In this document: in pieces, positions 16,891 to 36,854 of the stretch
How positions within the stretch are numbered: position 1 is the stretch's first letter
How the letters are laid out: each line of letters begins with the position of its first letter
Assembly: GCA_039802265.1 (NCBI GenBank)
Contig: JBDRWI010000017.1
Location: 1 to 37,262 of the forward strand
Direction: 5' to 3'
DNA: 37,262 nt
From: a candidate division WOR-3 bacterium
GTDB lineage: Bacteria; Hydrothermota; Tepidihabitantia; SM23-42; JAOAFX01
Notes under the pieces: generated by a model
Databases searched by the model: none
Told to the model about the DNA's origin: nothing
What the model saw: the letters and a program-made list of their open reading frames with translations, nothing else
Position numbers and translations under genes: made by a program

Positions 16891-16907
16891 TTCAATCTTT
16901 CACCAAT

Positions 16908-16935
16908 AATATACTCAAAATATGCGGGATGTCAA
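16908..16935 (-). promoter_or_regulatory. Sigma70-type promoter of the iscS-mnmA-holB operon
   Basis: Minus strand TTGACA (16935-16930), 16 bp, TATATT (16913-16908); short leader with a GGTGA SD-like sequence. Confidence 0.6.
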
Positions 16936-16959
16936 TAGTAATTACCTATCTTTTTAATA

Positions 16960-16987
16960 TTGACATTTGGCAAAATTTTAATAAAAT
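16960..16987 (+). promoter_or_regulatory. Sigma70-type promoter of the chemosensory operon
   Basis: TTGACA (16960-16965), 16 bp, TAAAAT (16982-16987); ATG 7 nt downstream; back-to-back with the iscS promoter. Confidence 0.7.
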
Positions 16988-16994
16988 AAACTAT

Positions 16995-19900
16995 ATGGAG
17001 TTTAACCTACCGGAGTCAATTATCAACCGGCTCAGGCCCTATCTTGATAGCTATGGGGAGAATTGCCAGAAATTTTTAAATGCGGGTCATCATATCGAAA
17101 GTCGACTCCAGTCAAATTCAGAGATATTAAGTGAAATCCGTCACCAGTTTGATAATCTTTCAGCAACCGTGGAATTAGTATTTGAGGGCATCTCGGTCTT
17201 TGAAAACGAAATAAAGAAGGTAAAGGAATTACTTCAGGGCAGTATAACAGATTTTAATTCATCCCTGTCAATTCTTGCTCGGCTCAGTGACGACTTAAAG
17301 AAAATTACCGAAATATTTGACGAAATCAAGGAGTCGGGTTTGCAGCTTGCTGAGATAATAAAGAATATTAATATTGTTTCGGAGGGTATTGAGGTCGCTT
17401 CCCGCAATGCGGGAATAACCGCCTTTCATGCCGGACGGCAGGGGAGGGGTTTTGAGGTCATTGCCAGGGAGATGGGTCAGCTGGTGCGCATCTCCCGGAT
17501 TCCCACGCAAAAAATTCCCTTGACTTCCTCCGAGATTTTGAGGGGAATTGAAGAGCTTACTGCCGATCTAAAGAAAATTCAAGATATAATTTCAGATTTA
17601 AACGAGATTGCAAAGAGGTTTTCCGAAATTAACGCCGAGTTGCTTACAATTATCCCCTTTGTGGAAACGAGCCTTCAGGATATAGCGGCGAGCATTATCA
17701 CCCAGAAAGATTTACAGAAGGCGCTCATGAAGGAGAACGAGAAGCTACCGCAGTACCTATCTGAAATTTATAATATTACACGGTCATCTGCCGTTACTGA
17801 GATATTTCTGTCCGCCTTCTTTCAGCATATTAACAATATCAAAGATGGCCTCTTTACTGTTAAGGACACCGATTCATTTTATAGTTTACTTAATATTTTT
17901 AAGTCTATTCTTTTCAATATACCTGACTTTGCAGAACAGGTGGAAAGATTTTTAGACCTTTCTAATCTTAAAAAAATGGAAGTCCAGACATCGGACCGGC
18001 TTATTCTTCAGTTCGTTTCAGAGGCCAATCATCTCAATGAGATTATCTCGGCAATTGCCAACAAGGTTTTGGATTGGCTGAAGGTCTATGAGACGGCTAC
18101 CGGTGTCTTGAAAAGGGCAATGGATTTCTATAAAGTGATACTGGAGATTTTGGGATTATTGCAAAAGAAACTAATCTATCTGAAAGAATCAACCAAAAAG
18201 ATTGAAGAACCACTGCGGGAATTAAAAAGGATTACCGAACGTTCAAAATTGCTCGGACTTTATGCCCGGATTGAGAGCGCGCGCAGCGGTGAGTATGCTA
18301 CCTCATTGGGTGTTGTTACCGGTGAGATCAAAAATCTGTCCGAACGAATAAGAGATTTCGTTGGTAACATTGAATTGATTGAAAAGGAGATTGAACAGAA
18401 TTTTAAGACACTCATATCCTATTTTATATGTAGCACAAGCGATGTGGAGGAAGGTATCGGTGCAATTAAGTCAGCAGTCTCTTCCGTTGATGAGGGTAAT
18501 AATGTTTTAAAAAATCTTGATTCGCTCTCCAAAGAGATGCTTTCTTCAACAAGAAATATGGTGGCGCAATGTCGGACAATTGGCGAAAAGGTCAGAATCT
18601 TTAATGATGACTATCAGAGAATCGGAGAAGATTTTGCTGCCTATCTTGAGGCAGTGAAGTCGGGCAACGAAGATTGCAAAAAAATAACAGGTATAATTAA
18701 GGGATTTGAGAAGGACATCGCCATCGTAGTGAAACAGAAACACAGGACTCTTGTCTTCCGTGATACTACCGAACCCATAATTCTAGATCCAGCAAAAAAG
18801 ACTGACGCCACAAGCCATCAGGTAATAGAACAGATTTTTATTGGACTTCTGAGTTTTGATTCGGCAAATAATCTCATTCCCGGAATTGCCAAGTCTTTTT
18901 CTGTATCCCCTGACGGTCGTTTATGGAGTTTTTCCCTGCGAGAGAATGTTAAATTTCACGATAATTCTAAAGTAACCGCAGCGGCTGTAATAAATTCGTT
19001 CCAGCGGGTAAAGCTCGGTCCGAATGCAAACTTTATTGATTACATTGAAGATATGAAATTGATCAACGAAGGCGATGTTCAGTTTGTTTTGAAGTTTCCT
19101 TATATTCCCTTTCTGGCAAATCTTGCCTGTGGTGTCTGCGATATTGTGCCCCAGGATTTTTCCGAGAGCAATCCAGTTGGCTGTGGGCCTTATCGCTTTG
19201 TCCACTGGGAGAAAGGTCGAGAGATTATCCTTGAGGCCTTTGATGACTTTTTTGATGGGCGACCAGTCATAGACCGCTGTTTAATCAAGGTTATCCCCGA
19301 TGATAAAGAGGCGGTTGAGCGATTTAAAAAAGGTGAGATATCAATTATGAGTCTTTCGGTTGATATGATGGGTGAATTTCCTCCTGATGAGATAATCTCA
19401 GGCCCGGTTCTTTCTACTCAGTATATTTCAATTAATGTTGGACTTGATTCACCCTTTAAGGACCGCCGGGTTCGTCAGGCAATGAATTATGCGATTGACA
19501 AGGAATACTACACCAAGGTTCTTTTAAAAGGACAGGCAATTCCAGCCAAGGGTATTTTTCCCCCCAATCTACCAGCATACAATAAAAATCTTGTCGGTTA
19601 TCCCTACGATTTAAAAAAGGCAAGGGAATTGATGAGGGAGGCTGGTTTTGGCGCGGGCATAAAGGAAAGTTTTATCTTTGATATCCGGGAGGATGCAGAG
19701 GTAATCTACCGTGCCGAGTTTATCAGAGATTCACTGGCAAAGATTGGTATAAACTTAAAATTGAATCCCTTACCCTGGAAGGAATTTTTAGAAAAAACTT
19801 ACAGTGGTAAAAGCATATTGAGCCTGCGCGGATGGATTTCGGACAACGGTGACCCTGATAACTTCCTTTTTCTATTTCATACAAGGAGTTTCGGTTCATC

Positions 19901-20141
19901 TGGGAATACCTCTTTTTACTCAAATGCTGAGATTGATCATTTGATTGAGTCAGCCCGCGCCGAGCAGGTTGTAAAAAGGCGGATGGAATTGTATAAAAAG
20001 ATTGAAGAGATGTTGATTTTTGATGCCCCCTGGGTTTTCCTCTCGCACGGGGTTGAAAGTTTTGTGGTTCAAAAGAATATTGGTGGCTTCCGGGTTGATC
20101 CCTTTGGTCTGGTTCGCTTCAGAAATCTTTGGTGTGAATAG
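16995..20141 (+). CDS. Soluble chemoreceptor-like protein: two MCP signalling-like domains fused to a C-terminal ABC peptide/nickel substrate-binding (family 5) domain, 1048 aa
   Basis: MCP tip motifs NAGITAFHAGRQGRGFEVIAREM and LYARIESARSGEYATSLGVVTGEIKNLSER within heptad-rich helices. From about 18744 the SBP5 motifs are LDPA, PGIAKSFSVSPDG, LRENVKFHD, PVGCGPYRF, RVRQAMNYAID and GWISDNGDPDNFL. No signal peptide or obvious TM helix. Confidence 0.85.
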   Translation: MEFNLPESIINRLRPYLDSYGENCQKFLNAGHHIESRLQSNSEILSEIRHQFDNLSATVELVFEGISVFENEIKKVKELLQGSITDFNSSLSILARLSDDLKKITEIFDEIKESGLQLAEIIKNINIVSEGIEVASRNAGITAFHAGRQGRGFEVIAREMGQLVRISRIPTQKIPLTSSEILRGIEELTADLKKIQDIISDLNEIAKRFSEINAELLTIIPFVETSLQDIAASIITQKDLQKALMKENEKLPQYLSEIYNITRSSAVTEIFLSAFFQHINNIKDGLFTVKDTDSFYSLLNIFKSILFNIPDFAEQVERFLDLSNLKKMEVQTSDRLILQFVSEANHLNEIISAIANKVLDWLKVYETATGVLKRAMDFYKVILEILGLLQKKLIYLKESTKKIEEPLRELKRITERSKLLGLYARIESARSGEYATSLGVVTGEIKNLSERIRDFVGNIELIEKEIEQNFKTLISYFICSTSDVEEGIGAIKSAVSSVDEGNNVLKNLDSLSKEMLSSTRNMVAQCRTIGEKVRIFNDDYQRIGEDFAAYLEAVKSGNEDCKKITGIIKGFEKDIAIVVKQKHRTLVFRDTTEPIILDPAKKTDATSHQVIEQIFIGLLSFDSANNLIPGIAKSFSVSPDGRLWSFSLRENVKFHDNSKVTAAAVINSFQRVKLGPNANFIDYIEDMKLINEGDVQFVLKFPYIPFLANLACGVCDIVPQDFSESNPVGCGPYRFVHWEKGREIILEAFDDFFDGRPVIDRCLIKVIPDDKEAVERFKKGEISIMSLSVDMMGEFPPDEIISGPVLSTQYISINVGLDSPFKDRRVRQAMNYAIDKEYYTKVLLKGQAIPAKGIFPPNLPAYNKNLVGYPYDLKKARELMREAGFGAGIKESFIFDIREDAEVIYRAEFIRDSLAKIGINLKLNPLPWKEFLEKTYSGKSILSLRGWISDNGDPDNFLFLFHTRSFGSSGNTSFYSNAEIDHLIESARAEQVVKRRMELYKKIEEMLIFDAPWVFLSHGVESFVVQKNIGGFRVDPFGLVRFRNLWCE

Positions 20142-20564
20142 ATGGAGACTTTGATTGTCTTTAAGATTGCCGAAGAAAAACTTGGACTTGATATTACCAA
20201 GGTTCGTGAGGTGACTGAAATAAAAGACCTGGTTCCGGTCCCCCAGGCACCGAACTTTCTGACCGGTCTGGTAAATGTGCGGGGTGAGATTGTTCCAGTT
20301 CTTTCCCTTAAGAAACGGTTTGGTTTAGAAAAGATTGAAGAGAGTAATGTATTGTTAGTTGTTGAGGACAAAGGGCGGATAGCCGGAATACGGGTTGACT
20401 CTCTTTTGGGAACAAAGAAAATTGATGAAAATAAAATCAACAGAAGTTCTGAGATTATTTCAACGAAAAAAGAAAAGGATTTCTTCCTCGGTGTTCTGGA
20501 GACTGAGGAGAGTCCGATACTCATTTTGGATTTGGCAAAGATTTTGTCAAAAAAGGGGGATTGA
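20142..20564 (+). CDS. cheW: Chemotaxis coupling protein CheW
   Basis: LIVFKI...GLDITKVREV, VPQAPNFLTGLVNVRGEIVPVLSL and GIRVD. Confidence 0.95.
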   Translation: METLIVFKIAEEKLGLDITKVREVTEIKDLVPVPQAPNFLTGLVNVRGEIVPVLSLKKRFGLEKIEESNVLLVVEDKGRIAGIRVDSLLGTKKIDENKINRSSEIISTKKEKDFFLGVLETEESPILILDLAKILSKKGD

Positions 20565-20586: not shown

Positions 20587-20946
20587 ATGAGAGTTTTAAT
20601 TGTGGACGACGCAATGTTTATGCGTCGTATGCTCAGTGACATTTTAGAAAAGGGTGGACATACAGTCTGTGGCGAGGCAGCAACTGGAAAAGAGGCAGTA
20701 GAAAAATATAAAGAATTGAAGCCCGATTTGGTCACGATGGATATCATTATGCCGGATATGAGCGGTATTGAGGCAGTAAAGGAGATAAAGAAGTTTGACC
20801 CCAAGGCAAAGATTCTTATGGTTTCAGCAATGGGTCAGCAGGCGCTGGTGCTGGAGGCGGTACAGGCAGGGGCAGTTGACTATGTTGTTAAACCCTTTCA
20901 GCCATCGCGGGTTTTGGAGTCCATTGAGCGGATAACGAAAAAATGA
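20587..20946 (+). CDS. cheY: Single-domain response regulator CheY
   Basis: VLIVDDAMFMR, PDLVTMDIIMPDMSG, VSAMGQQ and VVKPF (Thermotoga/Bacillus-like CheY); SD AAGGAGG. Confidence 0.93.
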   Translation: MRVLIVDDAMFMRRMLSDILEKGGHTVCGEAATGKEAVEKYKELKPDLVTMDIIMPDMSGIEAVKEIKKFDPKAKILMVSAMGQQALVLEAVQAGAVDYVVKPFQPSRVLESIERITKK

Positions 20947-20978: not shown

Positions 20979-22484
20979 ATGGAAGAATATTTAGAGCTCT
21001 TCATCAGCGAAACCGAGTCATACATAAAACAGATGAATGACCAGCTCTTAATTTTAGAAGGTAACAATCGGAATAAAGATTCTATCCTTGAAGTTTTTCG
21101 CATTTTGCACACCATAAAAGGGATGGCACAGACAATGGGTTTTGAAGAAATTGCGACTGTTTCCCACAAGGCTGAAGACCTCCTCGGTGATGCTAAAAGT
21201 AAGGGTGAAATCAATCCCCGGGTCCTGTCATTTCTCTTTACAGTTGCTGATTACATAGCCAATGCAGTGCAGATGATAAAAGAGAAAAATCCGTTACCGG
21301 ATCCCCAGCAGATTGTTCAAGTCCTTGAAGAGCTTGCCCGTGGTAAAGAAATAGAATTTAGTGGTCAGGGAATTACGACAAGGGAAATCTCTGAGATAAG
21401 AATAAAGACAGAAAAACTGGATAAACTCTTTAATCTTACCAACGAATTACTTATTACTCGCTCCAGACTTCTTATGGTTAGCCAAAAAATTGGTGATAGT
21501 GAAATGGTTGATGTTTGCGAAACAGCCGGAAGGTTAATATCGGCATTGCAGGATGAGGTTATGCGATTGCGAATGCTTCCTGTTTCTACAGTCTTTGATT
21601 TCTTCCCACGCTGGGTAAGGGATGAGGCAAAGAGGCAGAATAAAGAAGTTGATTTTGTTATTAGCGGTGGTGAACTGGAAGTGGACCGTTCCATAATTGA
21701 TGTTTTAAAAGAGCCGATTATGCATCTTTTGCGGAATGCCCTTGACCATGGCATTGAAAAGAAGGGAAGGATTACACTTGCTGCCCAAAAAGAAAAGGAG
21801 TTTGTCAGAATCAGTGTCAGTGATGATGGTCGGGGTATTGATCCGGAAGAGATAAGGGAAAAGGCAATAGAGAAAAAGATTGTTGAGCCGATGGTTGCCC
21901 AGCGTTTAACAAAGGATGAGCTATATAGGTTGCTCTTAAGACCAGATTTTTCAACCAAGAAGGAGACCACCGAGATTTCTGGTCGTGGGATAGGGCTGGA
22001 TATCGTATATTCCACGGTTACCGAACTGGGCGGCCGAGTGGAGATTGCCTCGGAAAAGGGTAAGGGTTCAATTTTTACCATTGAATTACCACTCAGTCTT
22101 GCCGTTCAGCGTGCGATGGTCTTTGCGTTGGATGGTCAGCGTTTTGCCATTCCTTTAAATTATATAACCGAATCATTTTATATTGAAGAAAGTGAAATAA
22201 AGACAGTTTATGGTCGGGAATTGATTGCATTGAGGGATGATATCCTGCCCCTTGTGCGTCCGGGTAACAGGTTGAATTGTGTTTCCCGTCCCGGCCGAAA
22301 ATCAGTGATTGTTGTTCGTTATCGTAACACCCAGAGGGGTTTTGTTGTTGATGAGATTATTGCTGAGGATGAACTGGTGGTAAAGAAGATTGACCCGCTT
22401 CTGCCCGGCTCACTCTATGCTGGTTGTGCAATCTATGCAGATGGCAAGCCGATTTTAATTTTAGAGCCAAGGGGGTTTGAATGA
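20979..22484 (+). CDS. cheA: Chemotaxis histidine kinase CheA (P1-P3-P4-P5, no P2)
   Basis: Hpt FRILHTIKGMA, dimerisation LDKLFNLTNELLI, N box HLLRNALDHGIE, G1 DDGRGID, G2 SGRGIGLDIV and C-terminal CheW-like P5; only 501 aa. Confidence 0.95.
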   Translation: MEEYLELFISETESYIKQMNDQLLILEGNNRNKDSILEVFRILHTIKGMAQTMGFEEIATVSHKAEDLLGDAKSKGEINPRVLSFLFTVADYIANAVQMIKEKNPLPDPQQIVQVLEELARGKEIEFSGQGITTREISEIRIKTEKLDKLFNLTNELLITRSRLLMVSQKIGDSEMVDVCETAGRLISALQDEVMRLRMLPVSTVFDFFPRWVRDEAKRQNKEVDFVISGGELEVDRSIIDVLKEPIMHLLRNALDHGIEKKGRITLAAQKEKEFVRISVSDDGRGIDPEEIREKAIEKKIVEPMVAQRLTKDELYRLLLRPDFSTKKETTEISGRGIGLDIVYSTVTELGGRVEIASEKGKGSIFTIELPLSLAVQRAMVFALDGQRFAIPLNYITESFYIEESEIKTVYGRELIALRDDILPLVRPGNRLNCVSRPGRKSVIVVRYRNTQRGFVVDEIIAEDELVVKKIDPLLPGSLYAGCAIYADGKPILILEPRGFE

Positions 22485-23089
22485 TTGATACCAAAAACCT
22501 GACACCAAGGCAACTTGACGCACTGACCGAGGTTGCAAACATTGGCGGAGGTCATGCAGCCACTTCCCTGTCTCAGTTACTGGGTAAGAAGGTAATGATC
22601 AGGGTACCCACTCTCTTTACCGGTCCATTAGAAGATGTAATCCTGAAGATTGCCGACCCCAATGATGTTGTTGCCTCGGTACTGCTTTATTTCCTTGGTG
22701 ATCTTACCGGTCGGACCCTTCTCATCTATCCCTATGAAGATGCCCAAGAATTGACAAATCTTTTAATGCCGGAAAATCAGGAGAGTACATTAGAATTACA
22801 GGAATCGTTATTGAAGGAAGTTTCCAATATTCTATCCTGTTCGTATATGAATGCCCTTGGTGAGTTATTGGGACTTCTGATACTACCTTCGGTACCGGGA
22901 ATGATTATTGATATGGTCGGTGCAGTTCTTTCCAGTGTCATTGTTGAGTTTGGTCATGAAAAGGACTTTATCTTCTGTATTGAGACGGAATTTGATTTTG
23001 GTGATGTAAGTAAACCATTGCGTGCCTATTTCCTCCTCCTTCCTGATACTTCAAGTTTAGAATTGATTCTTAAAAAACTTAATGTATAA
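22481..23089 (+). CDS. cheC: CheY-P phosphatase CheC
   Basis: Two ExxN motifs: LDALTEVANIGGGHAATSLS and SLLKEVSNILSCSYMNAL; SVP motif. Confidence 0.93.
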   Translation: MIDTKNLTPRQLDALTEVANIGGGHAATSLSQLLGKKVMIRVPTLFTGPLEDVILKIADPNDVVASVLLYFLGDLTGRTLLIYPYEDAQELTNLLMPENQESTLELQESLLKEVSNILSCSYMNALGELLGLLILPSVPGMIIDMVGAVLSSVIVEFGHEKDFIFCIETEFDFGDVSKPLRAYFLLLPDTSSLELILKKLNV

Positions 23090-23094
23090 TTTTT

Positions 23095-25479
23095 ATGATA
23101 TCGCCTGAGGAATATAAGATACTCAAGAGTTTTGCCGAGCGAATTCCGGATAATGACCCCGGGGCACACAATAATCTTGCAGTGGTTTATTACAACAAGG
23201 GTCTTTATGAAGAGGCAATTGCCGAACTGGAGAAGGCACTGGCGATAGACCCGAACTTTCTACTTGCCCGAAACAATCTGGAGATTATCTTAAAAAAATC
23301 GGGACGCCTGGAAAATAAGGTAAAGGAACTTGCCTACCGCATTGAATCGGAGCCTTTTGATGAGATAAAGACACTGGAACTTGCGGATACATATCGTAAA
23401 TTGAATCGCTATTCCCAGGCAATAATCTTCTACCGAAAGGTCTTGGATTTTAATCCTGGCTCTTATGAGGCACATTTTGGTTTAGGATTGACCCTCAAGA
23501 GTCTTGGCAAATACGATGATGCCCTTGAGGAGATAAAGAAGAGTCTGGAGATAAAGATTTCACCGGAGGGCTACAGGGTTTTGGGTGAGATTTATTTCAA
23601 TAAGGGGGCAATCGACCTGGCAATTAAGAACTTTCAGGAATCCCTTCTTTTGGACCCGGATTCAGCCGAGACCCACTTCTTTCTGGGGTTTGCCCTTGGT
23701 GAAAAGGGAAAACATAAAGAGGGAAGAGAAGAGGTTAGAAAGGCGATAGAGTTGAATCCGGCACTGGCGCAATTTGAACCCAATTTACCCATAGAAATAA
23801 AGGAGCACAAAAGCCACCTTGATTTTCTAAAAGAGCAACTGGGAGTGCCCAAACCATCGGTCAATGAGTATCAGGTCCACTATAACCTCGGTTTGACCTA
23901 TCGCAATAAAGGTCTTTTTACCGAAGCCCGGCGTGAATTTGAAGATTGTCTGAAGATAAAATCCGATGATGTTGATCTCTATGTAATGATGGGTGAGGTC
24001 TCAATCTTTCTTGAAAAATTTGATGACGCATTAAATTATTTTGAGCGCGGTCTACAGCTTGACCCGCTTCAGCCAAGGTGTGCGAATGGCTTGGGAATTG
24101 TCTTTTTAAAGAGGCATGATTACAAACAGGCTCAGGGCTGGTTTGAAAAGGCATTAGCCTGGGATAAAGGCTTGCTTTCCGCATTGAATAACCTGGCAGT
24201 TATTCAGCTGGTTCAAAACAATCTTGAGGAGGCAATAAAGAATTTTACGACGGCAAAAGATGCTGGGAACGAAGAGGCGAAATATAATCTTGGTGTCTAT
24301 TATCTCAAAAATGGGGACTATGAAGGTGTATTAAAGTTATTTAATGAAGATACGGTTGATGGTAATTTCTTAAGGGGATTGGTCTTTGCAGAATTGGGAC
24401 GGGATGATGAGGCGGTTAGCTGTTTCAACGGAGTGATTAACCGCGCACCCAACTATGCCGGTGCATACTACAATTTGGGATTTCTTTATATGAAGATGGG
24501 AAGGTTTGAAGAAGGACTTTCCTTTATCCGTAAGGGTATGGAGATCGAGCCAAATTACGAAAAGGAAAAATTTCGGCTGTCTTTAGCCCCTGAGCTTTAT
24601 GAATATGGCTTGTTCTACCAGGCACCCAAGCCCGAAGAAAAACTGGTTGAAGAAATAGAAGAGGTCTTCCCCAAACTTGAAATTCCCACTGCCGAGAATT
24701 TTATCGCTGAGGCAGAGCGTCTCCTTGGCAACAAAAATTTCGAAAAGGCGCTGGAGATGGTGGACGAGGCAATCAAAATCAATCCCGATTTAAGTTCGGC
24801 GGTTGTCCTCAAGAGCAAAATCTTGTTTCAGTCTGACAATATTGAAGATGCAATCAATCTACTCAATACCTTTACGCAGACTCATCCTGATGATACCGCG
24901 ACCATCGCGGCTTTGGCGGGTTATCTCAAATCATTGGGAAGGTTGAAGCAGGCAAAGGATAAGTATCAACGCCTTCTTGAGTTGGAACCTGAAAATGTTA
25001 CCTGGCTTTCCGAGATTGGTGATATTTTCTATTCCCTTGATGAGATTGATGAGGCATTTGCTACATATAGAAAGTTATTATCAATTGATAGCAAAAATGT
25101 GAATGCTCATTTGGGTCTCCTTAAGGTCCATTTGAAGAAAAAAGATTTAGACCGTGCGAAGGAATTTGTTGATTTCTTTGAGCGGGAAGGCGTCAATTCG
25201 TATGAAGCCAATCTTTGCGTTGGCATCTACTGGTTGGAAAGGAATAATCGTGAAAGGGCAAGAAGTTATTTAGAAAAGGCAATTGAAATTGACCCGTCAA
25301 AGCCCCTTCCTTATTATCATCTCGGTCTTTTGTTTGTTAACGAAGGCAAATTTGATGAGGCCTGTACAAACTGGAAGAAGGCACTCCTTTTAAGCCCCAA
25401 TGAGGAACTGGCGAATAAGATAAGCCATTGCCTCAGCATTACGATGGAAATGATGGAATTTTTAAAGAAAGAGATTTAA
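23095..25479 (+). CDS. Large tetratricopeptide repeat protein (794 aa)
   Basis: Many TPRs, e.g. AHNNLAVVYYNKGLYEEAIAELEKALAIDP, HYNLGLTYRNKG and AYYNLGFLYMKMGRFEE; no signal peptide. Confidence 0.9.
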   Translation: MISPEEYKILKSFAERIPDNDPGAHNNLAVVYYNKGLYEEAIAELEKALAIDPNFLLARNNLEIILKKSGRLENKVKELAYRIESEPFDEIKTLELADTYRKLNRYSQAIIFYRKVLDFNPGSYEAHFGLGLTLKSLGKYDDALEEIKKSLEIKISPEGYRVLGEIYFNKGAIDLAIKNFQESLLLDPDSAETHFFLGFALGEKGKHKEGREEVRKAIELNPALAQFEPNLPIEIKEHKSHLDFLKEQLGVPKPSVNEYQVHYNLGLTYRNKGLFTEARREFEDCLKIKSDDVDLYVMMGEVSIFLEKFDDALNYFERGLQLDPLQPRCANGLGIVFLKRHDYKQAQGWFEKALAWDKGLLSALNNLAVIQLVQNNLEEAIKNFTTAKDAGNEEAKYNLGVYYLKNGDYEGVLKLFNEDTVDGNFLRGLVFAELGRDDEAVSCFNGVINRAPNYAGAYYNLGFLYMKMGRFEEGLSFIRKGMEIEPNYEKEKFRLSLAPELYEYGLFYQAPKPEEKLVEEIEEVFPKLEIPTAENFIAEAERLLGNKNFEKALEMVDEAIKINPDLSSAVVLKSKILFQSDNIEDAINLLNTFTQTHPDDTATIAALAGYLKSLGRLKQAKDKYQRLLELEPENVTWLSEIGDIFYSLDEIDEAFATYRKLLSIDSKNVNAHLGLLKVHLKKKDLDRAKEFVDFFEREGVNSYEANLCVGIYWLERNNRERARSYLEKAIEIDPSKPLPYYHLGLLFVNEGKFDEACTNWKKALLLSPNEELANKISHCLSITMEMMEFLKKEI

Positions 25480-25494: not shown

Positions 25495-26397
25495 ATGGCA
25501 GACGAATTGATTATGGACTCCAAGGCCCTGATCTTTGCAACACTGGCCGATGTCTATCTCAGTTCCGGGATGATTGATGAAGCAATTTCAATCCTGCAAG
25601 ATGGTTTGACCAGGAATCCAAACTATACACTGGCAAAGGTTATCCTGGGACGGGCATATTATTTAAAGGGCAACATTGATGAGGCATTGAAAATTCTACA
25701 GGAGAATTATGAATCGGCCAAAGGAAGCGAGACCTTGAATCTCTATCTCGGACATTGCTACAAAAAGAAGGGGGAATATGAGAAGGCAATTGGTTATTAT
25801 GAAGCGGTACTCAAAATAAATCCCGAAAATCGTGAGGCGAAGGAGTCATTGGAGGTCTTGAAACCAACTCAACCATTGCAAAAGCCCGCATCTGAAGCAA
25901 TTGTTGAACAACCACCAGCAAAACCCCAGCCGGAGATGGTTGCCATTCCGAAGACCGATGTTGAACCCACTGCACCGACCGAGCTATTACCAGAACTCGG
26001 ACTTGAACCAATGCCTGCCCGGGCGGTTGAAGTGCCCGCACCCCTTGAGGCACTCAATGAACCGATGGGTCGCCTTCTGGAGATAAAGTCAGTGAAGGGG
26101 GCATTTATCCTTTCCCGTGATGGCCTTTTGATTCAGAACTATTATGCGGCGAGAACTGATTTGGAAGAAATCTGCGCCTTAATCGCGGGTATATTCAATG
26201 AGGCTGATGAGGCATTTAAATTCTTGAAATGTGGGGCACTGGAAAGATGTATTATTGAGAAGAAGGAAGAGACAATCTGTGTTATTACGGCCGGTGAGTC
26301 GTTGCTCTGTATTATTACAAAACCCGAGGCAAAGCCCGGGCTTGTCTTTTTGTATGCAAAGAAGATTATTGAGGAAATCAGGAAGGTATTAGGATGA
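25495..26397 (+). CDS. TPR - proline-rich linker - Roadblock/LC7 (MglB-like) fusion protein
   Basis: Three N-terminal TPRs, a P/E/A-rich linker, then VKGAFILSRDGLLI...ICALIAGIF...LLCIITKPEAKPGLV (Roadblock pattern). Confidence 0.85.
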   Translation: MADELIMDSKALIFATLADVYLSSGMIDEAISILQDGLTRNPNYTLAKVILGRAYYLKGNIDEALKILQENYESAKGSETLNLYLGHCYKKKGEYEKAIGYYEAVLKINPENREAKESLEVLKPTQPLQKPASEAIVEQPPAKPQPEMVAIPKTDVEPTAPTELLPELGLEPMPARAVEVPAPLEALNEPMGRLLEIKSVKGAFILSRDGLLIQNYYAARTDLEEICALIAGIFNEADEAFKFLKCGALERCIIEKKEETICVITAGESLLCIITKPEAKPGLVFLYAKKIIEEIRKVLG

Positions 26398-26693
26398 TGT
26401 TATCAGAATTAACCAGAATACCTCGTGTCTTCGGCGCGGGTATAGCAACCTTTGATGGTTTTATCGTTGATAGCCAGTTCATTCATGGCTATGATGCTGA
26501 GCGATTCGGCGCGATGGCGGCCAAGATTATGACCCAGGTAAAAAAGAACCTCGGTGCGGAGAGCGGTGCGGTTATTCTTTATACACAAGACATTGTCTTT
26601 CTTGCCAAGGCAAAGCCGGAGGGGGTTCTCTTTGTAGTTGGTGACAAAGAGGCAAATCTGGGACTTATTAAAATAAAATTTGAGAAGATGTAG
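26394..26693 (+). CDS. Stand-alone Roadblock/LC7 domain protein (MglB/MglC-like)
   Basis: GAGIATFDGFIVDS...AERFGAMAA...LFVVGDKEANLGLIK; ATGA overlap with the upstream gene. Confidence 0.82.
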   Translation: MMLSELTRIPRVFGAGIATFDGFIVDSQFIHGYDAERFGAMAAKIMTQVKKNLGAESGAVILYTQDIVFLAKAKPEGVLFVVGDKEANLGLIKIKFEKM

Positions 26694-30527: not shown

Positions 30528-30851
30528 ATGGGTAGAATTGTTTTGCTGCTTCTAACATTATCATTGATTGTGGAGCGGATTACTGAGAAGATACTATCCC
30601 TTTTGCCGAAAAAGAACAATAAATATTTTGCCTGGATTATTACAATCATCCTTGGCCTGTTGATTTCTTTCAGTTTCCGGTTTGCTTTTTTACAGGAATT
30701 GGGTTTGAAGGAGGGTACAAATGTCAGTCAGGTCGTTGATTATATCTTGAGCGGTATTTTGATTGCCTGTGGCAGTGAACCTGTTCATTCAATCGTTGAT
30801 GCCCTTTCATTTAAAAGGGATGAATTGAAACGAAAGGCAAAAGGTGTTTGA
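30528..30851 (+). CDS. Small three-helix membrane protein (putative holin-like family)
   Basis: Three hydrophobic segments, IVERITE and ILSGILIACGSEPVH motifs, basic C-terminus. Confidence 0.65.
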   Translation: MGRIVLLLLTLSLIVERITEKILSLLPKKNNKYFAWIITIILGLLISFSFRFAFLQELGLKEGTNVSQVVDYILSGILIACGSEPVHSIVDALSFKRDELKRKAKGV

Positions 30852-33800
30852 TATATTTGCGGGTAAGGACCCTCAGAAGGCACTCCAGCGGGCGCATGAG
30901 TTGATTAAAGAGGGAAGGAGTACCCAGGCGATCAGGGTCTTGCAGGATAATCTCACCCAGGGCGAAGAATCATTTGACCTTTATTTAGAACTTGCCCGAC
31001 TGTACTTTGAAAACGAGCAGAGACCGGAGGCAGTTGAGACATTACGAAACTGCTATTCATTTTTTCCCAACAGGGTTGATGAGATAATCGGCCTCTTATC
31101 CGATTATTTTTACCGTTATACCTCAATTGATGCAGGTGATTTTCTAATTCAACTTTATACCCGGGAGGGTCAGTATGACGAGGTTGCCAAGGTCCTGAGG
31201 GCGTTCAATGAGCGGGAGATAAAACTTTTAACCAATAAATATGAAAAGTTGAAACAGGGGTTAGGGGAGAAGAAGGTTTTGAGTAAACGTGACCTTGAGA
31301 TTATCATAATCCTTGGGACAATAAATTTTCTCTATCGGGAACCCCAATCGGCAATTGAGGCGGTAGAGTCCGTCGTTGAAATAGACACATTTCAGAAAGA
31401 GCTCATTGCCTGGGCAAGGACAATTTCGCGTGAACGATTCAATGACCCCTATCCCGCGCTTCTGCTTCTTAGGTTATTAATTGCCTCAAAAAATTTTACC
31501 GAGGCACTAACCCAGGCACAGCGCATTTATGAAAAATTTCCCGATTTCTTGGACCCCCTGATTGAAATGGTTTCAAAGGCGCAACCACCCCGGGAGTTAG
31601 AATCCAATTTCAGTGAATTCCTAACTGAGTTATATGTAAAGAAAGGTGACCTTGATGCATCACTCGCCCGCTTGCAACTCATCTTGAAGAATGAACCATC
31701 CCGGATTGATGAGGTGATAAAGACCCTTCGTGAATTGCAGCGGATAAATCCCAAAAACTTGAAGGTTCTTTATATCCTGGGGGATACCCTGCTCAATAGC
31801 GGACGGGTATCACTGGCAATCAGTGAATATGAAAAGATTCTGGAGATGGATAGCGGTGAGGCAGAGAAGTTGATTCAAAGATATCGACGGGCATTTGAAA
31901 AGGAACCGAATAATCCATTGGTGATTCAAAGTCTGGTTAACTTGTATCTCAAACAGAATAAACTTGATGATGCAGTAGCGTTAATTGAGCGGGCTTACAA
32001 TTTCGATCCAGGGCTTTTGGACGAGTATATCCTCAACCTCAACGCAATACTGGAAAAAGACCCCGGTAATTTTGGTGCTTTAAAAATCCTCGGTTTGTGT
32101 CTGGCACATAAGGGCGATGACGAAAATGCCGGTTTGATTATTGAAAACTTAATGGAAAACGGTAAAAATGAGATTGTCGGTGAGATGCTTGATGAGATAA
32201 TCAAGAAAAAGCCAAAAGATAATATATATGTTAATCTAAAGGCAAAAAATTTAATCGCCTTGGATAGAATAGGTGAGGCATTTTCACTAATTGCACCCAA
32301 CCTTGACGATGATTTGAACAAGACAATCATATTTGTACCGACCCTGGACGCGATTGTGAATAAAAAACCTGAATATGCACCTCAAATACTAAATTTTTAT
32401 AAAACAAAAGAGAATGAAGCGCCCGATATCTTTGGTGTTGCCCTGGCAAGGGCATATGCTTATGTTGGTGATTATGAAGGTTCTATTAAAAAATTTGACG
32501 AATGTTTTTCAAAACTGGAGCATAAAGATGCGGTAAAAAGGGCACTGATAGAGGTACTCAAAGAAAGACCCAAGGCAGTCCCCCTTCTCTTGAGTGCCGC
32601 CCGGATATTTATGAAAGAAGGAGAGATTGAGATTGCCACGCAATTTTTCAAGACTGCCCAGATGGTAGACCCCAAGGCATTCTTTGAGATTGTTGATGAA
32701 TTCTATGACACACTCAAGAATTTCCCGAAAGATAAGGAAGTGCGGATTTTGTTGATTGATACCTTTTTTAATCGGAAGCTCTATGACCGAGTGATTGAGG
32801 AGGCAAAGAAGGGAATAGAGGTCTTTGGTCAAAATGTCCAGTATTTTAACTTAAAATTGGGGCAGGCACTTGTAGAAAAGGGTAACTTGACTGATGGGGT
32901 AAGACCGCTGATGCTCGCCCTTGATGGAGAGATGGACTATTCAAAGGAGGTTTTGAGTTATCTGGATAAGATTCTTGAGGTGGATAAAAGCAATGTTCCG
33001 GCACACTTTGCCCGGGGTCGGGCACTTGCCCGTTGCCGGATGATTGATGAGGCAGTTGATGAGTATCTGCTTACTGCCCGAATCGTACCGGCGCGTGCTG
33101 AATATGTATTAGAAGAGTTAAAAAATCTCCTAACGAAGGCAATTACCAATCCCAAGTTAATTTATGCCATTGGAAATGTGGAAATTACGCTGAAGAGGTA
33201 TGAAGATGGGATAAGGCATCTCCTCCAGGCCTGCGAACTTGATTCTAATTTTGTCAGCCGGGCAATTCCAATATTTGAGAAGATGATTTATGAATTTCCC
33301 TCTCCTTTCCTTGAATTTTCCCTTGCCCGGCTCTATTCAATGGCAAACTTAAATAATTCGGCAACAAAATACTTCATTTTAGCCCAGGAGCACGATAAAA
33401 AATACCTTGAACCGGCAATCTCCGAATTGAAGAAAATCTGCGCCGAAGAATCCAAGGACACAGAATCCCGCAAGGGACTGGCACAGATCTATTTCAATTA
33501 CAATAACCTGGAGGATGCCCTGAATTTAACTGCAGAGATTTACCGATTAAATCCGAATGAGACAGACTGGGTGAAGTCATTTGTTTTTAATATCCTTTCC
33601 AAGAATGCCACCCATTTACCTTCCTATTATTTTATCGGCACAGTATTCCTGCAGGAAGGAAATTATCCGAAGGCACTGGAGGTCTTTAAAAAATTGCTTG
33701 ATATTGCACCCGGTGAGATTATGGAGGTGATTAAAAGACTCTCCGAATACAAAGAAAAAAGCCCGGAGGTGATGTTTCATCTGGCAAAACTCCACAAGGA

Positions 33801-34575
33801 CTGTGGTGACATTCAAACTGCTCTAAGGGTATTTGGTGAATTATTCAAGGTAAATAAGGCATACGCCGATTTACTTGTAGAACAATTGAAGGAGATTATT
33901 TCGAAGAATTCCAATATCGGCGAGGCGTATCTTCTTTTAAGTGAAGTCTTCATCTTTAAGGAGGAATATGATTCAGCCCTTAATATTCTGAATCAGGCTG
34001 AGCCACTCTTTCCCGAGAAAAAGGAAGAAGTTATATTGAAGATGGGACAGATTTTCTTTGAAAAGGGTGAACCGGAGAAGGCATTACAGATGTATAATCG
34101 CCTCTTGAATGAGGTCTCGGACCGAAGGAGGGTTTACCGAATAATCACGAAGACGAAAGGCGAATATCTAAAGGAGAAACTCGAAAAGATAAAAGGCGAA
34201 GGTGCGGGCGACCGGCTGAATCGTGCAAATATCTATCTATTAATGGGAGAAATAAATCTGGCTGAGAAAGAACTGGAGTTTATACCAACCGAGGAAGAGA
34301 TAAAGAAGGAATATTTAATCTTGAAGACAAAAATTCACCTTGCCCGTAACCGACCTCTTGATGCCCTTGAGGTGATTAGAACATTGCCGGCAGATGCCGA
34401 TACTGCACCAGTCTATGCTGATTGTTATGAAATGATTGGTTCCTATGAGGCCGCCGCCTCGGTACTGCGGAGTGTTGATGCAACACGATGGAAGGATCGG
34501 ATAATAAGATGTGAAAAACTTGCCCAGGAGAAGAGACTGGGTAGAACAGGGTATTTTATCGAAGGGAGGCTTTGA
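30844..34575 (+). CDS. Giant TPR/alpha-solenoid protein (1243 aa)
   Basis: GTG start overlapping the upstream gene; TPR-like repeats throughout (LYILGDTLLNSGRVSLAISEYEKILEMD, AHFARGRALARCRMIDEAVDEY); no signal peptide. Confidence 0.85.
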   Translation: MFDIFAGKDPQKALQRAHELIKEGRSTQAIRVLQDNLTQGEESFDLYLELARLYFENEQRPEAVETLRNCYSFFPNRVDEIIGLLSDYFYRYTSIDAGDFLIQLYTREGQYDEVAKVLRAFNEREIKLLTNKYEKLKQGLGEKKVLSKRDLEIIIILGTINFLYREPQSAIEAVESVVEIDTFQKELIAWARTISRERFNDPYPALLLLRLLIASKNFTEALTQAQRIYEKFPDFLDPLIEMVSKAQPPRELESNFSEFLTELYVKKGDLDASLARLQLILKNEPSRIDEVIKTLRELQRINPKNLKVLYILGDTLLNSGRVSLAISEYEKILEMDSGEAEKLIQRYRRAFEKEPNNPLVIQSLVNLYLKQNKLDDAVALIERAYNFDPGLLDEYILNLNAILEKDPGNFGALKILGLCLAHKGDDENAGLIIENLMENGKNEIVGEMLDEIIKKKPKDNIYVNLKAKNLIALDRIGEAFSLIAPNLDDDLNKTIIFVPTLDAIVNKKPEYAPQILNFYKTKENEAPDIFGVALARAYAYVGDYEGSIKKFDECFSKLEHKDAVKRALIEVLKERPKAVPLLLSAARIFMKEGEIEIATQFFKTAQMVDPKAFFEIVDEFYDTLKNFPKDKEVRILLIDTFFNRKLYDRVIEEAKKGIEVFGQNVQYFNLKLGQALVEKGNLTDGVRPLMLALDGEMDYSKEVLSYLDKILEVDKSNVPAHFARGRALARCRMIDEAVDEYLLTARIVPARAEYVLEELKNLLTKAITNPKLIYAIGNVEITLKRYEDGIRHLLQACELDSNFVSRAIPIFEKMIYEFPSPFLEFSLARLYSMANLNNSATKYFILAQEHDKKYLEPAISELKKICAEESKDTESRKGLAQIYFNYNNLEDALNLTAEIYRLNPNETDWVKSFVFNILSKNATHLPSYYFIGTVFLQEGNYPKALEVFKKLLDIAPGEIMEVIKRLSEYKEKSPEVMFHLAKLHKDCGDIQTALRVFGELFKVNKAYADLLVEQLKEIISKNSNIGEAYLLLSEVFIFKEEYDSALNILNQAEPLFPEKKEEVILKMGQIFFEKGEPEKALQMYNRLLNEVSDRRRVYRIITKTKGEYLKEKLEKIKGEGAGDRLNRANIYLLMGEINLAEKELEFIPTEEEIKKEYLILKTKIHLARNRPLDALEVIRTLPADADTAPVYADCYEMIGSYEAAASVLRSVDATRWKDRIIRCEKLAQEKRLGRTGYFIEGRL

Positions 34576-36854
34576 TGAAGTGTCCTTTTCTTGTAAAGAG
34601 AAAGGAGATATACGACAAAGATGGTAAGCGTATTGCTGAGGAGATAGAATTAAAGGATTGTATAAAGAATGAATGTATGGTTTACGATGGTTCGGCGAAA
34701 CTTTGTTCCTTTCTTTCTACAAATATCAAAAACGGCATTATCATTGAAGAATTCAAAAATGGAATAAAGGCAGTAAAAGAAGAGATGTTTCAACGCACCG
34801 AGGCCCTGGGTGTCATTATTTCTACTACAATTCAGACATTGCAGGATGCCCTGCTTGGTCGTTTTGATGTTTTAAAGAAACAGAATGAGGTTATTGCCCT
34901 GGGCTTTGACCGTCTTTCCGAAATTCAAGGTAGCCTTATTGATGCGATTAGGAATTCTTCACGGGAGGTCACTGAACATATTAACAATCTCCTCACTACC
35001 TTTAAATCAGCCGGTGATAATATTAAAGCGCTTGAAGGGATAATAGATACAATTGCTCAAGGACAGGCGCGGCTGGCAGATGAGACAAAGGATTTATTAA
35101 ACGGACTGAAGGGCGATTTTGAGAAGTTAGGAAATGTCTTTGGCAGCAGCACCGAACCCTTGAAGAATGAGATTGCCAGATTGATTACCACCTATCAGAT
35201 TGGGGTTGAGGCAATAAACGGTGAGATAAATAAATCTAATTTGACGCTTGCAGAGATTTTAAAGAAATTTGAAAATTTTGATAACCTTTTGAATAGTATC
35301 AATAGCATTGGCGATTTGATGAAGAGCGAAAGTGCTGGAGTAAAGGCGGAATTTGTTAATAGCCTGGGAACGCTGATTGGAAAGTTTGATGAATTTAGAA
35401 TTCTGTTTGTTGATACGCTGAATTTATACAAGAGCGAAATTGAGGCATTGAATAATAAGTCCCAGGAGTTGATTAATACATTTAATGCCCGATTTGAAGA
35501 TTTTAAGGCAGTATTTGCTGATGCAACAAGAAGCAATAAAGAAGACCTCCAGAGTTTACTGCAAAGATTGCAAACAATCACCGATAACATTCCCGCAAAC
35601 TTGAAAGAAACCAGTGAAATGCTGAAAAATGAGATTGGGGTATTCAAAAATGAATCGGTGGTAATATTAAGTAATCTCCAGGGTGGGCTGGATAGATTAA
35701 CCGAATTCCTGCGCGAGATTCAGAATAGTTTGGTAAAGTTACATGATACAATTGAGGTTACAAATCGCAATTATCTGGAGGCACTGGGAAGATTCTCAAG
35801 CCTTGGTGATGGCCTTAGGGCGAACTTTGAGGGTCTCGGTGCTGAACTGAAGGAGCGATTCGCCGAATATTTAAAAACTCTGAACGAAGAATTGGGGATA
35901 ATTGAAAATAGGGTTGCGAACCCGGTTGCCAGTATTCAGACGAATATTTCCCAATTTGAAGACTACCTTGGCAAGATCAATACCAGTATTGCCAATATGA
36001 GTGAGATGATGAACAATTTAAATCGCAACTATCTTGAGTCATTAGGAAAGATTGCGGGTCTTGCCGAGGGTATGCGTAAGGGTGTTGAGGCAGTTGGCGA
36101 AAATATGAATGAGGCGGTAAAGGGACTGATAAGTGAGATGAAAAAGGAGATAGGGGCACTTGAGGAACAATATCAGAAGACATTCAGCGATATTGCCCAA
36201 CTTGCCGGAAAATTTGAACAACTCAATGACAAGATTGGCAGTATGACTGACGAGATTAATAGTGAGTTTAATGAGACCTTAAAGAAACAGACTGAAATGA
36301 CCAATGTCTCAAGCGACATTTTGAAACAGATTAAAGATTACTTTGAAAAAGAGGAACTACGCCATAAAGAAGAGGAGATTCGTAAGAGAAAGAAAGATGC
36401 CCTTGACCATTTTGACCGGTCAACATTATACTATTATCGGGGTAATTACGAGCTGGCGCTTGGTGAGATAGAAAAGGCGCTGGATTTAGATAAACTTGCT
36501 GAGTATCTTAATCTTAAGGGTCTCATACTAACTGAACTGGGGAGACCGGATGAGGCTAAAACTGCCTACCAGGAGGCATTAAGATTAGAGCCGAATCTTG
36601 CCGAGTTATACAATAATCTGGGTTTGCTCTATATAAAGACAAGGAATCTGAACGATGCAGCTATGGCATTTCAGGAGGCAATAAAAAAGAATGTCAATTA
36701 TACACTTGCCTATGTCCATCTGGGCAAGGTCTTACTTGAACTGGAACGATTTGATGAGGCAATCAATGCCTTTGAGCAGGCATTGAAGATTGATCCAACA
36801 AATAAAGAGGCAAAAGAGGCAATTGCCTTGTACAAAGAAGGAAAACTTGGTTAA
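34575..36854 (+). CDS. Protein with N-terminal four-Cys motif, long coiled-coil/helical-repeat body and C-terminal TPRs
   Basis: MKCPF...DCIKNECMVYDGSAKLC, about 550 aa of heptad-rich helix and four TPRs (LYNNLGLLYIK, AYVHLGKVLLELERFDEAINAFEQALKIDP); SD GGGAGG; TGATG coupling. Confidence 0.82.
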   Translation: MKCPFLVKRKEIYDKDGKRIAEEIELKDCIKNECMVYDGSAKLCSFLSTNIKNGIIIEEFKNGIKAVKEEMFQRTEALGVIISTTIQTLQDALLGRFDVLKKQNEVIALGFDRLSEIQGSLIDAIRNSSREVTEHINNLLTTFKSAGDNIKALEGIIDTIAQGQARLADETKDLLNGLKGDFEKLGNVFGSSTEPLKNEIARLITTYQIGVEAINGEINKSNLTLAEILKKFENFDNLLNSINSIGDLMKSESAGVKAEFVNSLGTLIGKFDEFRILFVDTLNLYKSEIEALNNKSQELINTFNARFEDFKAVFADATRSNKEDLQSLLQRLQTITDNIPANLKETSEMLKNEIGVFKNESVVILSNLQGGLDRLTEFLREIQNSLVKLHDTIEVTNRNYLEALGRFSSLGDGLRANFEGLGAELKERFAEYLKTLNEELGIIENRVANPVASIQTNISQFEDYLGKINTSIANMSEMMNNLNRNYLESLGKIAGLAEGMRKGVEAVGENMNEAVKGLISEMKKEIGALEEQYQKTFSDIAQLAGKFEQLNDKIGSMTDEINSEFNETLKKQTEMTNVSSDILKQIKDYFEKEELRHKEEEIRKRKKDALDHFDRSTLYYYRGNYELALGEIEKALDLDKLAEYLNLKGLILTELGRPDEAKTAYQEALRLEPNLAELYNNLGLLYIKTRNLNDAAMAFQEAIKKNVNYTLAYVHLGKVLLELERFDEAINAFEQALKIDPTNKEAKEAIALYKEGKLG

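Follow-up and report, generated by a model that had tools for sequence, protein, structure and literature searches.

In Escherichia coli the binding protein DppA acts on the chemoreceptor Tap in trans. Like GbpA and GsiB, with which it shares a common solute-binding protein (SBP) fold, it is exported, serves an ABC permease and signals via the periplasmic domain of a receptor. SBPs of family 5 (SBP5) are also listed among the principal domains C-terminal to the signalling domain of methyl-accepting chemotaxis proteins (MCPs) (Ortega and Krell 2020; PMC7390727 Supp. Fig. 2), and sections of that survey term the C-terminal-sensor chemoreceptors poorly characterised. Tandem MCP signalling domains within one soluble chain are known from DosM of Vibrio cholerae (VC1403, F9 systems), which portions of PMC7534058 describe as an extended rod spanning two baseplates and whose homologues, according to parts of PMC9321776, are without a sensor in 98% of cases and accompanied by a triple CheW. 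Two signalling subunits per chain are likewise present in the single-chain MCPs treated by Mowery et al. 2015 (PMC4692393); excerpts of that paper report that an engineered Tsr~Tsr signals and place natural soluble forms, with an unclear role, in a few microbes, among them Rhodospirillum centenum. Here we report on a receptor gene (16995-20141, forward strand) in a stretch of 37,262 nucleotides from a candidate division WOR-3 bacterium (contig JBDRWI010000017.1 of assembly GCA_039802265.1), hereafter termed the window. Its product contains two unlike MCP hairpins followed by a family-5 SBP, and we interpret it, with chances we put slightly above even, as a cytoplasmic receptor whose hairpins form a single-chain pseudo-dimer and whose C-terminal DppA-type domain tunes the CheA encoded downstream.

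A first-pass annotation of the window had recognised one MCP-like coiled coil at the N-terminus. Its MCP identity is retained; however, the profile MCPsignal (PF00015) matches in two stretches (window 17301-17705, 41.9 bits, and 18174-18593, 50 bits), each of which alone exceeds the curated cut-off of 34.6 bits, and the coiled coil consists of two differently specialised hairpins instead of one. Their tips, residues 131-166 (tip 1) and 416-451 (tip 2), were compared with 130 canonical tips from 117 proteins in Tsr numbering anchored to the tip motif. The alignment comprises 65 A-type and 19 more distant sequences (84 in total); not part of it are the cluster of the window itself, P0050, four partial proteins, P0079 (see below) and the single-hairpin matches. 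Among the A-type sequences the canonical residue is found in 0% of tips 1 at Tsr positions 374-380, 385, 387 and 388, and the new residues at 375-380 are conserved to 97-100%; this new invariant N-helix, with E385 changed to T and R388 to H, stands beside the retained N381 and G393-R-G-F396. Tip 2 keeps L378, L380, I384, E385 and R388 in 65/65 sequences and has lost GRGF, with Y at 381 and L at 396 (65/65 each). The same pattern recurs in the 19 more distant sequences. The complete canonical invariant motif is thus present in neither hairpin; each retains about half of it, and since the two halves are opposite ones the receptor represents a variant of the MCP type. Opposite and conserved changes of this kind are expected of the two halves of one dimer, not of independently homodimerising tips. 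The tip-to-tip distance varies between 281 and 285 aa across the sequences in non-heptad steps, and this variation is wholly confined to the linker between the hairpins (39-43 aa in the 65 A-type sequences), which is flanked by arms of fixed length. A Glx scan of the receptor gave only one strict methylation motif, at 485; E269, present in 65/65 A-type sequences 121 residues past tip 1 and in register with sites of the genome's membrane receptor, is a candidate methylation site.

The spatial arrangement of the hairpins was approached by AlphaFold models calculated from alignments of 84 and 94 rows and folded as one chain, with a predicted local distance difference test of ~89 (89.5 for the later model) and predicted template modelling scores (pTM) of 0.68 and 0.65. 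Helices at residues 5-145 and 147-288 are followed by a break with short helices (289-330) and by helices at 331-430 and 432-574. The shape of the model was inferred from structural matches and not from inspected coordinates. The single-chain four-helix bundles 1yo7 (Z 15.3, 117/120 residues, root-mean-square deviation (rmsd) 1.9, receptor residues 118-462) and 6z0c (Z 18.0, 199/199, rmsd 2.3, residues 96-487) align across both tips; because small bundles do so with both tips simultaneously, the model corresponds to a bundle that folds back and places the two tips at the same end. Hairpin 1 alone matches the Thermotoga receptor 2ch7_A over 292/309 residues, and a Foldseek search with the N-terminal model returned generic coiled coils only. 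According to this prediction the two hairpins together build a single four-helix bundle by folding back, and thus imitate the receptor dimer within one chain; the SBP is predicted to be joined to the bundle by a linker of ~10 residues at the end opposite the tips. The fold-back agrees with the confinement of non-heptad length variation to the inter-hairpin linker and with the homologue P0079, which carries an entire SBP5 inserted between two hairpins, the first tip-1-like and the second tip-2-like, so that the central helix need not be continuous.

The C-terminal part was found to be the complete SBP5 that had been proposed from ~18744 to the stop, the fold beginning at about residue 585 (nt 18747). 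Pfam SBP_bac_5 (PF00496) matches residues 627-962 with 262 bits (E 1e-77; cut-off 32.4), the Pfam check having thereby recovered both this profile and MCPsignal, and the domain shows the three-lobed fold of the family and superimposes on DppA (1dpp) with a target-normalised TM-score of 0.85, an rmsd of ~2.7 Å and a Foldseek E of 1e-34. Its identity to DppA/GsiB/GbpA-type proteins amounts to 28-30%; the score against the DppA NCBIfam equivalog is 199.6 bits versus a cut-off of 1005, and all NCBIfam equivalog cut-offs lie far above the scores of the domain. Among the pocket residues D604 and W947 are present in 84/84 and D950 in 82/84 aligned sequences, W947, D950 and the motif NGDPD corresponding to DppA W405/D408. 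D408 contacts the charged ligand terminus according to parts of PMC3295651, and the D436R change of entry 8z1z maps to D950. The ligand is likely a small amine-bearing molecule, for example a short peptide; the peptides, muropeptide fragments, glutathione or metal chelate suggested in the first-pass annotation are candidates. Export and a paired ABC permease, the marks of an SBP_bac_5 transport component, were not found for this domain: a Pfam scan of the neighbours gave no adjacent ABC permease or ATPase gene, as had been stated before, and the only permeases of this type found in the genome (89% complete) are a sugar-type pair.

In a quick tree of 57 SBP domains, the 25 double-hairpin receptors share a clade (SH-aLRT 99) with six soluble single-hairpin fusions and with the C-terminal SBP of P0079; this clade stands apart from exported SBP5s including those of the source genome. 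The grouping with MCP fusions, away from exported SBP5s, fits the earlier idea of a transport-type SBP repurposed as an intracellular sensor. The position of SBP5 behind the MCP domain, taken as surprising at first, is by contrast already catalogued and occurs in single-hairpin receptors of Clostridia (e.g. P0097, ~820 aa), which are likewise soluble, have MCPsignal before SBP_bac_5 and belong to the same SBP clade but possess one canonical hairpin and would homodimerise. The clade is also compatible with an origin in which two MCP-SBP5 genes fused in tandem and the first sensor was lost. P0079, which is 1605 aa long and has a cluster member with the label Dependentiae, shows the domain order MCP-SBP5-MCP-SBP5, its first SBP lying on a long branch, and looks like an intermediate toward the double-hairpin receptors. 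A separate fusion is suggested for the membrane-anchored single-hairpin MCPs P0100, P0104, P0106 and P0107, since their C-terminal SBP5 domains branch apart from this family.

By all genomic signs the gene is real, conserved and functional. Its single frame contains no internal stop, in line with the first-pass annotation, and the homologue search returned 107 proteins from 8000 scored candidates, 83 of which align over 95% or more of the query when the cluster of the window itself is counted, so that relatives do not present two separate genes. The suspicion of a mis-join at 18700-18760 was dispelled by contigs of three further runs, X5 (18591-19402), X6 (17209-19077) and X7 (18455-19468), which bridge the MCP-SBP junction as does X1, the possible source contig; joints or indels are listed for none of the spanning contigs. 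All runs containing the stretch are hot-spring metagenomes; RNA data were not among them, two runs labelled metatranscriptomic being marked as probably DNA. An assembly artefact or a recent accidental read-through of two genes might be suspected in view of the metagenome assembly and the unusual domain order; given the homologue coverage, the spanned junction and single-frame genes in 32 of 60 related genomes, we count this explanation as refuted, its probability being close to nil.

Upstream of the gene a sigma-70-type promoter-like site matches the consensus at 11/12 positions, and TTGACA with a -10-like box is present at the equivalent position in 10/10 orthologous loci inspected (window locus included). 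As the site ends 7 nt before the ATG at 16995, the start is fixed there and a leader could not be accommodated; the transcript is likely leaderless, an appearance common to all 10 loci. Longer N-termini from TTG 16827 or ATG 16929 were rejected, as they run into the promoter or into the divergent gene iscS and the orthologues begin at the matching ATG; the promoter layout common to all 10 loci makes these frames unlikely as well. Back-to-back promoter-like sites (window 16906-16987) separate the receptor from the divergent iscS-mnmA-holB genes. With respect to localization, Kyte-Doolittle windows revealed neither an export signal nor a membrane segment in the receptor, consistent with the initial annotation: the highest 19-residue window (1.53) lies within the SBP core, windows starting in the first 60 residues reach at most 1.37 in the 84 aligned homologues, and only 6/84 attain 1.6 anywhere in the sequence. 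The data support a soluble, cytoplasmic, membrane-free receptor.

Named homologues belong mostly to candidate division WOR-3, the more distant ones to TA06, Edwardsbacteria and Stahlbacteria. The receptor was found in 35 of 60 related genomes, in one frame in 32, cut by a contig end in two and frameshifted near residue 277 in one (G021:C217, L095); this frameshift and the protein P0067, which starts at residue 308 near the linker, are single-member cases that may reflect an assembly error or a natural split. A pattern scan of genome contigs detected 59 loci, of which 2 were full-length and the others matched in the SBP part only. All 35 receptor genomes contain the CheA orthologue, in 28 within ~1.4 kb of the receptor, and among the other 25 genomes it was found in a single case, in the form of a more distant CheA. 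Receptor, MCP domain and CheA orthologue are all missing in the 11 searched genomes of genus g9; in genome G027 the TPR-roadblock genes are retained and the five che genes gone. Because related genomes are not independent, the absence of receptor and che genes has to be counted as one or a few losses. A second, diverged paralogue (paralogue B) exists in at least 28/35 receptor genomes and also in the source genome (G000:C4:33588-36767 (-), L060:7589-10768; 1059 aa, 30% identical to the receptor), where it follows directly behind tRNA-Met and precedes a 726-aa coiled-coil gene, an order kept in G004 and G034.

The receptor is the first gene of a che operon (Table 1) whose cheA is the sole CheA found in the genome. 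Operon structure and co-occurrence support the link to CheA, and the receptor probably binds CheW/CheA and controls the kinase. The source genome further encodes two membrane receptors, cheR-cheD-cheB on another contig, mglB-mglA (PF03029 gave no MglA match, PF00025 two MglA-like frames), two PilB-type and five PilT ATPases. CheW matches number four, all single and one of them the CheA P5 domain; a triple CheW was not found in the 89% complete genome. Flagellin was found neither in the source genome nor in any of 60 relatives, and PilT is present in 53/60; we tentatively infer an output on pilus or polarity functions.

Table 1. Features of the receptor gene and its operon (window coordinates)
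Feature	Position	Strand	Remarks
Sigma-70-type promoter-like site	16960..16987	+	TTGACA/TAAAAT, end 7 nt before ATG
Receptor gene: MCP hairpin 1, linker cap, MCP hairpin 2, SBP_bac_5	16995..20141	+	1048 aa
MCP hairpin 1	17007..17858	+	residues 5-288, arms 141 and 142 aa
Linker cap between hairpins	17859..17984	+	residues 289-330, helix break and short helices, length-variable
MCP hairpin 2	17985..18716	+	residues 331-574
Family-5 solute-binding domain, complete, DppA/GsiB/GbpA-like	18747..20138	+	~29% identical to DppA
cheW	20142..20564	+	PF01584 E 2e-31; starts right after receptor stop
cheY-type single receiver	20587..20946	+	PF00072 E 6e-32
cheA (Hpt, dimerisation, HATPase, CheW)	20979..22484	+	no P2 match
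cheC phosphatase	22481..23089	+	PF04509, two stretches
794-aa TPR protein, same gene run	23095..25479	+	
TPR + roadblock/LC7 protein	25495..26397	+	PF03259 E 3e-11
Small roadblock/LC7 protein	26394..26693	+	PF03259 at cut-off, E 6e-5; position conserved

Further downstream on the same strand (window 30844-36854) lie genes for two larger proteins, one of 1243 aa with TPR and one of 760 aa that combines a coiled coil with TPR. The cheR, cheD and cheB genes of the source genome are located in a cluster (G000:C3:6261-13273 (+), L096:3262-10274) together with an MglB-like gene, a double DnaA-type ATPase and a TPR protein that carries an MshE-type motif for cyclic diguanylate; in G048 the window-type che operon and the cheR-cheD-cheB locus form one cluster. 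A third cluster (G000:C93:3119-6489 (+), L062) consists of an AAA_22 ATPase, cheW, a membrane MCP and cheW, in whose MCP several membrane segments are present but a sensor domain was not recognised. The nearness of TPR genes to pilT in G017 and G027 was not counted as evidence, the arrangement being missing in the complete genome G034. Other SBP5 domains of the source genome are a 680-aa lipoprotein-like SBP_bac_5 with C-terminal TonB_C (G000:C9:36137-38179 (+), L064:3138-5180), which has matching frames of comparable length in many relatives, g9 among them, and two exported-type SBP5 genes followed by genes for a HAMP histidine kinase, a receiver-like protein and an EAL protein, without a permease (G000:C25:3630-9849 (-), L063). 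In this lineage SBP5 domains appear to be used for signalling.

Compared with the described systems, the receptor resembles DosM in being soluble, in its tandem signalling domains, in the similar tip spacing and in the che-gene neighbourhood. In contrast to DosM it has a C-terminal SBP5, oppositely altered tips, a variable middle linker and a model that folds back, and its system contains single CheW proteins plus CheC/CheD; the sensorless state of F9 receptors is not shared, and their triple CheW was not found in the 89% complete genome. The engineered single-chain MCPs differ by their identical halves, and for the natural ones the excerpts of PMC4692393 mention neither a sensor nor specialised tips. 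The likeness to Dif of Myxococcus xanthus (DifA, DifC, DifD, DifE and DifG in a pilus-bearing cell, according to parts of PMC4671073) is one of gene content, namely MCP, CheW, CheY, CheA and CheC without flagellin; DifA forms a membrane complex, whereas the operon receptor is soluble and has two hairpins and an SBP5. From the periplasmic binding proteins it is distinguished by an SBP that is fused and cytoplasmic. In the searched literature we met no account of a receptor that combines a double hairpin, unlike tips and an SBP5, and part of the PMC9321776 supplements (DosM survey) gave no match for an SBP, but surveys of cytoplasmic receptor architectures may already list a form with two MCP domains and SBP5. 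We therefore regard the asymmetric double hairpin as the new element and the sensor-last SBP5-MCP layout as the known one.

Several observations weigh against the pseudo-dimer with a peptide-type sensor. Folding as a single chain favours intrachain packing, and the pTM is only 0.65 in one model; in the covariation analysis, which was shallow (88/94 rows, effective 65), the heterotypic registers were not separated from background, and one of two positive controls failed as well. According to parts of PMC4692393, an engineered single-chain Tsr shows subunit swapping between chains, and one of the 35 genomes carries the frameshift near residue 277. In an alternative reading the receptor is an extended DosM-like strut. 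Two chains would be arranged head to tail, tip 1 of each pairing with tip 2 of the other, and would bridge both baseplates of a cytoplasmic array built in two layers, with the SBPs in the mid-plane. Its tip spacing of 284 aa is near the 300 aa of the DosM-like P0198, the arm lengths are compatible with both topologies, unlike tips would pair here too, subunits are swapped in the engineered single-chain receptors, and the second soluble paralogue is available as array partner. However, the helix break and the non-heptad indels between the hairpins, the fold-back of the AlphaFold model and the SBP inserted in P0079 at exactly the inter-hairpin point speak for the folded-back form, and both tips of P0198 are near-canonical and a triple CheW was not found in the genome. 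We consider the strut unlikely, though a serious competitor.

The sensor side is affected by the carboxylate-binding Arg of DppA, which has no clear counterpart: the position of Arg355 falls into a gapped loop, and R898, two residues off, is present in 58/65 A-type sequences and 9/19 others. Moreover, an Opp/Dpp permease, PTR2 and an OPT transporter were not found in the 89% complete genome, which makes imported peptides doubtful as ligand source; our preferred guess is an internally made ligand such as peptides from protein turnover. That no peptide importer was found also fits a pocket in the same architecture that senses a metal, a metal chelate, a thiol or the redox state via CxxC 712-715 and nearby histidines (C712 in 57/65 and C715 in 55/65 A-type sequences, H608 in 55/65, H1018 in 77/84), and nickel and glutathione binders occur within family 5. 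The CxxC is nevertheless missing from the 19 more distant sequences, the best profile and structure matches are DppA-like and the terminus-binding Asp of DppA is retained, which renders metal or thiol sensing rather improbable. Similarly poor prospects are assigned to a scaffold or adaptor. In it CheW/CheA would dock to hairpin 2 only, while hairpin 1 would engage a different protein (paralogue B, the membrane receptors or a TPR protein) and the SBP would be structural without ligand signal. Such a role would account for the wholly new conserved face on tip 1, the single strict methylation motif outside the expected zone and the place as first gene of the operon, as with scaffolding receptors; changes of E385 and R388 disturb kinase control by Tsr, as stated in parts of PMC6681711. 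Against it stand pocket residues that are invariant over 25-86% identity and an SBP that is complete in the full-length homologues scanned. Finally, PilT and the TPR gene persist in genus g9 without the che module, so that the pilus is no more than a candidate output.

For the single-chain pseudo-dimer we propose a first mechanistic scenario. The two chains of a normal homodimer would perform two jobs, one at the trimer axis and one in binding CheW/CheA-P5; roles of inner and outer subunits are treated in parts of PMC6681711 and PMC4692393. Fusion of the chains might have freed each hairpin to specialise, hairpin 2 preserving the canonical face of its N-helix while hairpin 1 acquired another, invariant face, with F153 presumably facing L438/Y423 where a symmetric dimer stacks F396. 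On binding its ligand the SBP would close and thereby shift the helix packing at the top of the bundle, adaptation might be exerted by CheR/CheB/CheD of the second locus at the candidate sites E269, Q237 and E514, and CheY-P would act on type IV pilus or MglAB polarity functions and not on a flagellum. In its fullest form, which we advance only tentatively and hold to be less probable than not, the protein is a natural, sensor-bearing single-chain receptor derived from a tandem MCP-SBP5 gene fusion with loss of the first sensor, in which inner and outer subunits are separately evolving hairpins whose tips reveal the jobs of their residues, and whose DppA-type domain informs the machinery of pilus polarity about a cytoplasmic pool of peptides.

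Each tip residue occurs in two environments when receptor dimers assemble into trimers, and engineered single-chain receptors aimed at separating their roles were spoiled by subunit swapping, as parts of PMC4692393 relate. A natural family with oppositely diverged and conserved halves supplies this separation of inner and outer roles ready-made, and its unlike tips may have solved the swapping problem. If the proposal is true, the two tip sequences would show which conserved tip residues serve which job. The receptor would also be a test case for the control of CheA by a sensor placed after the signalling domain, without HAMP or membrane segment, and offers a handle on the behaviour of an uncultured, non-flagellated phylum.

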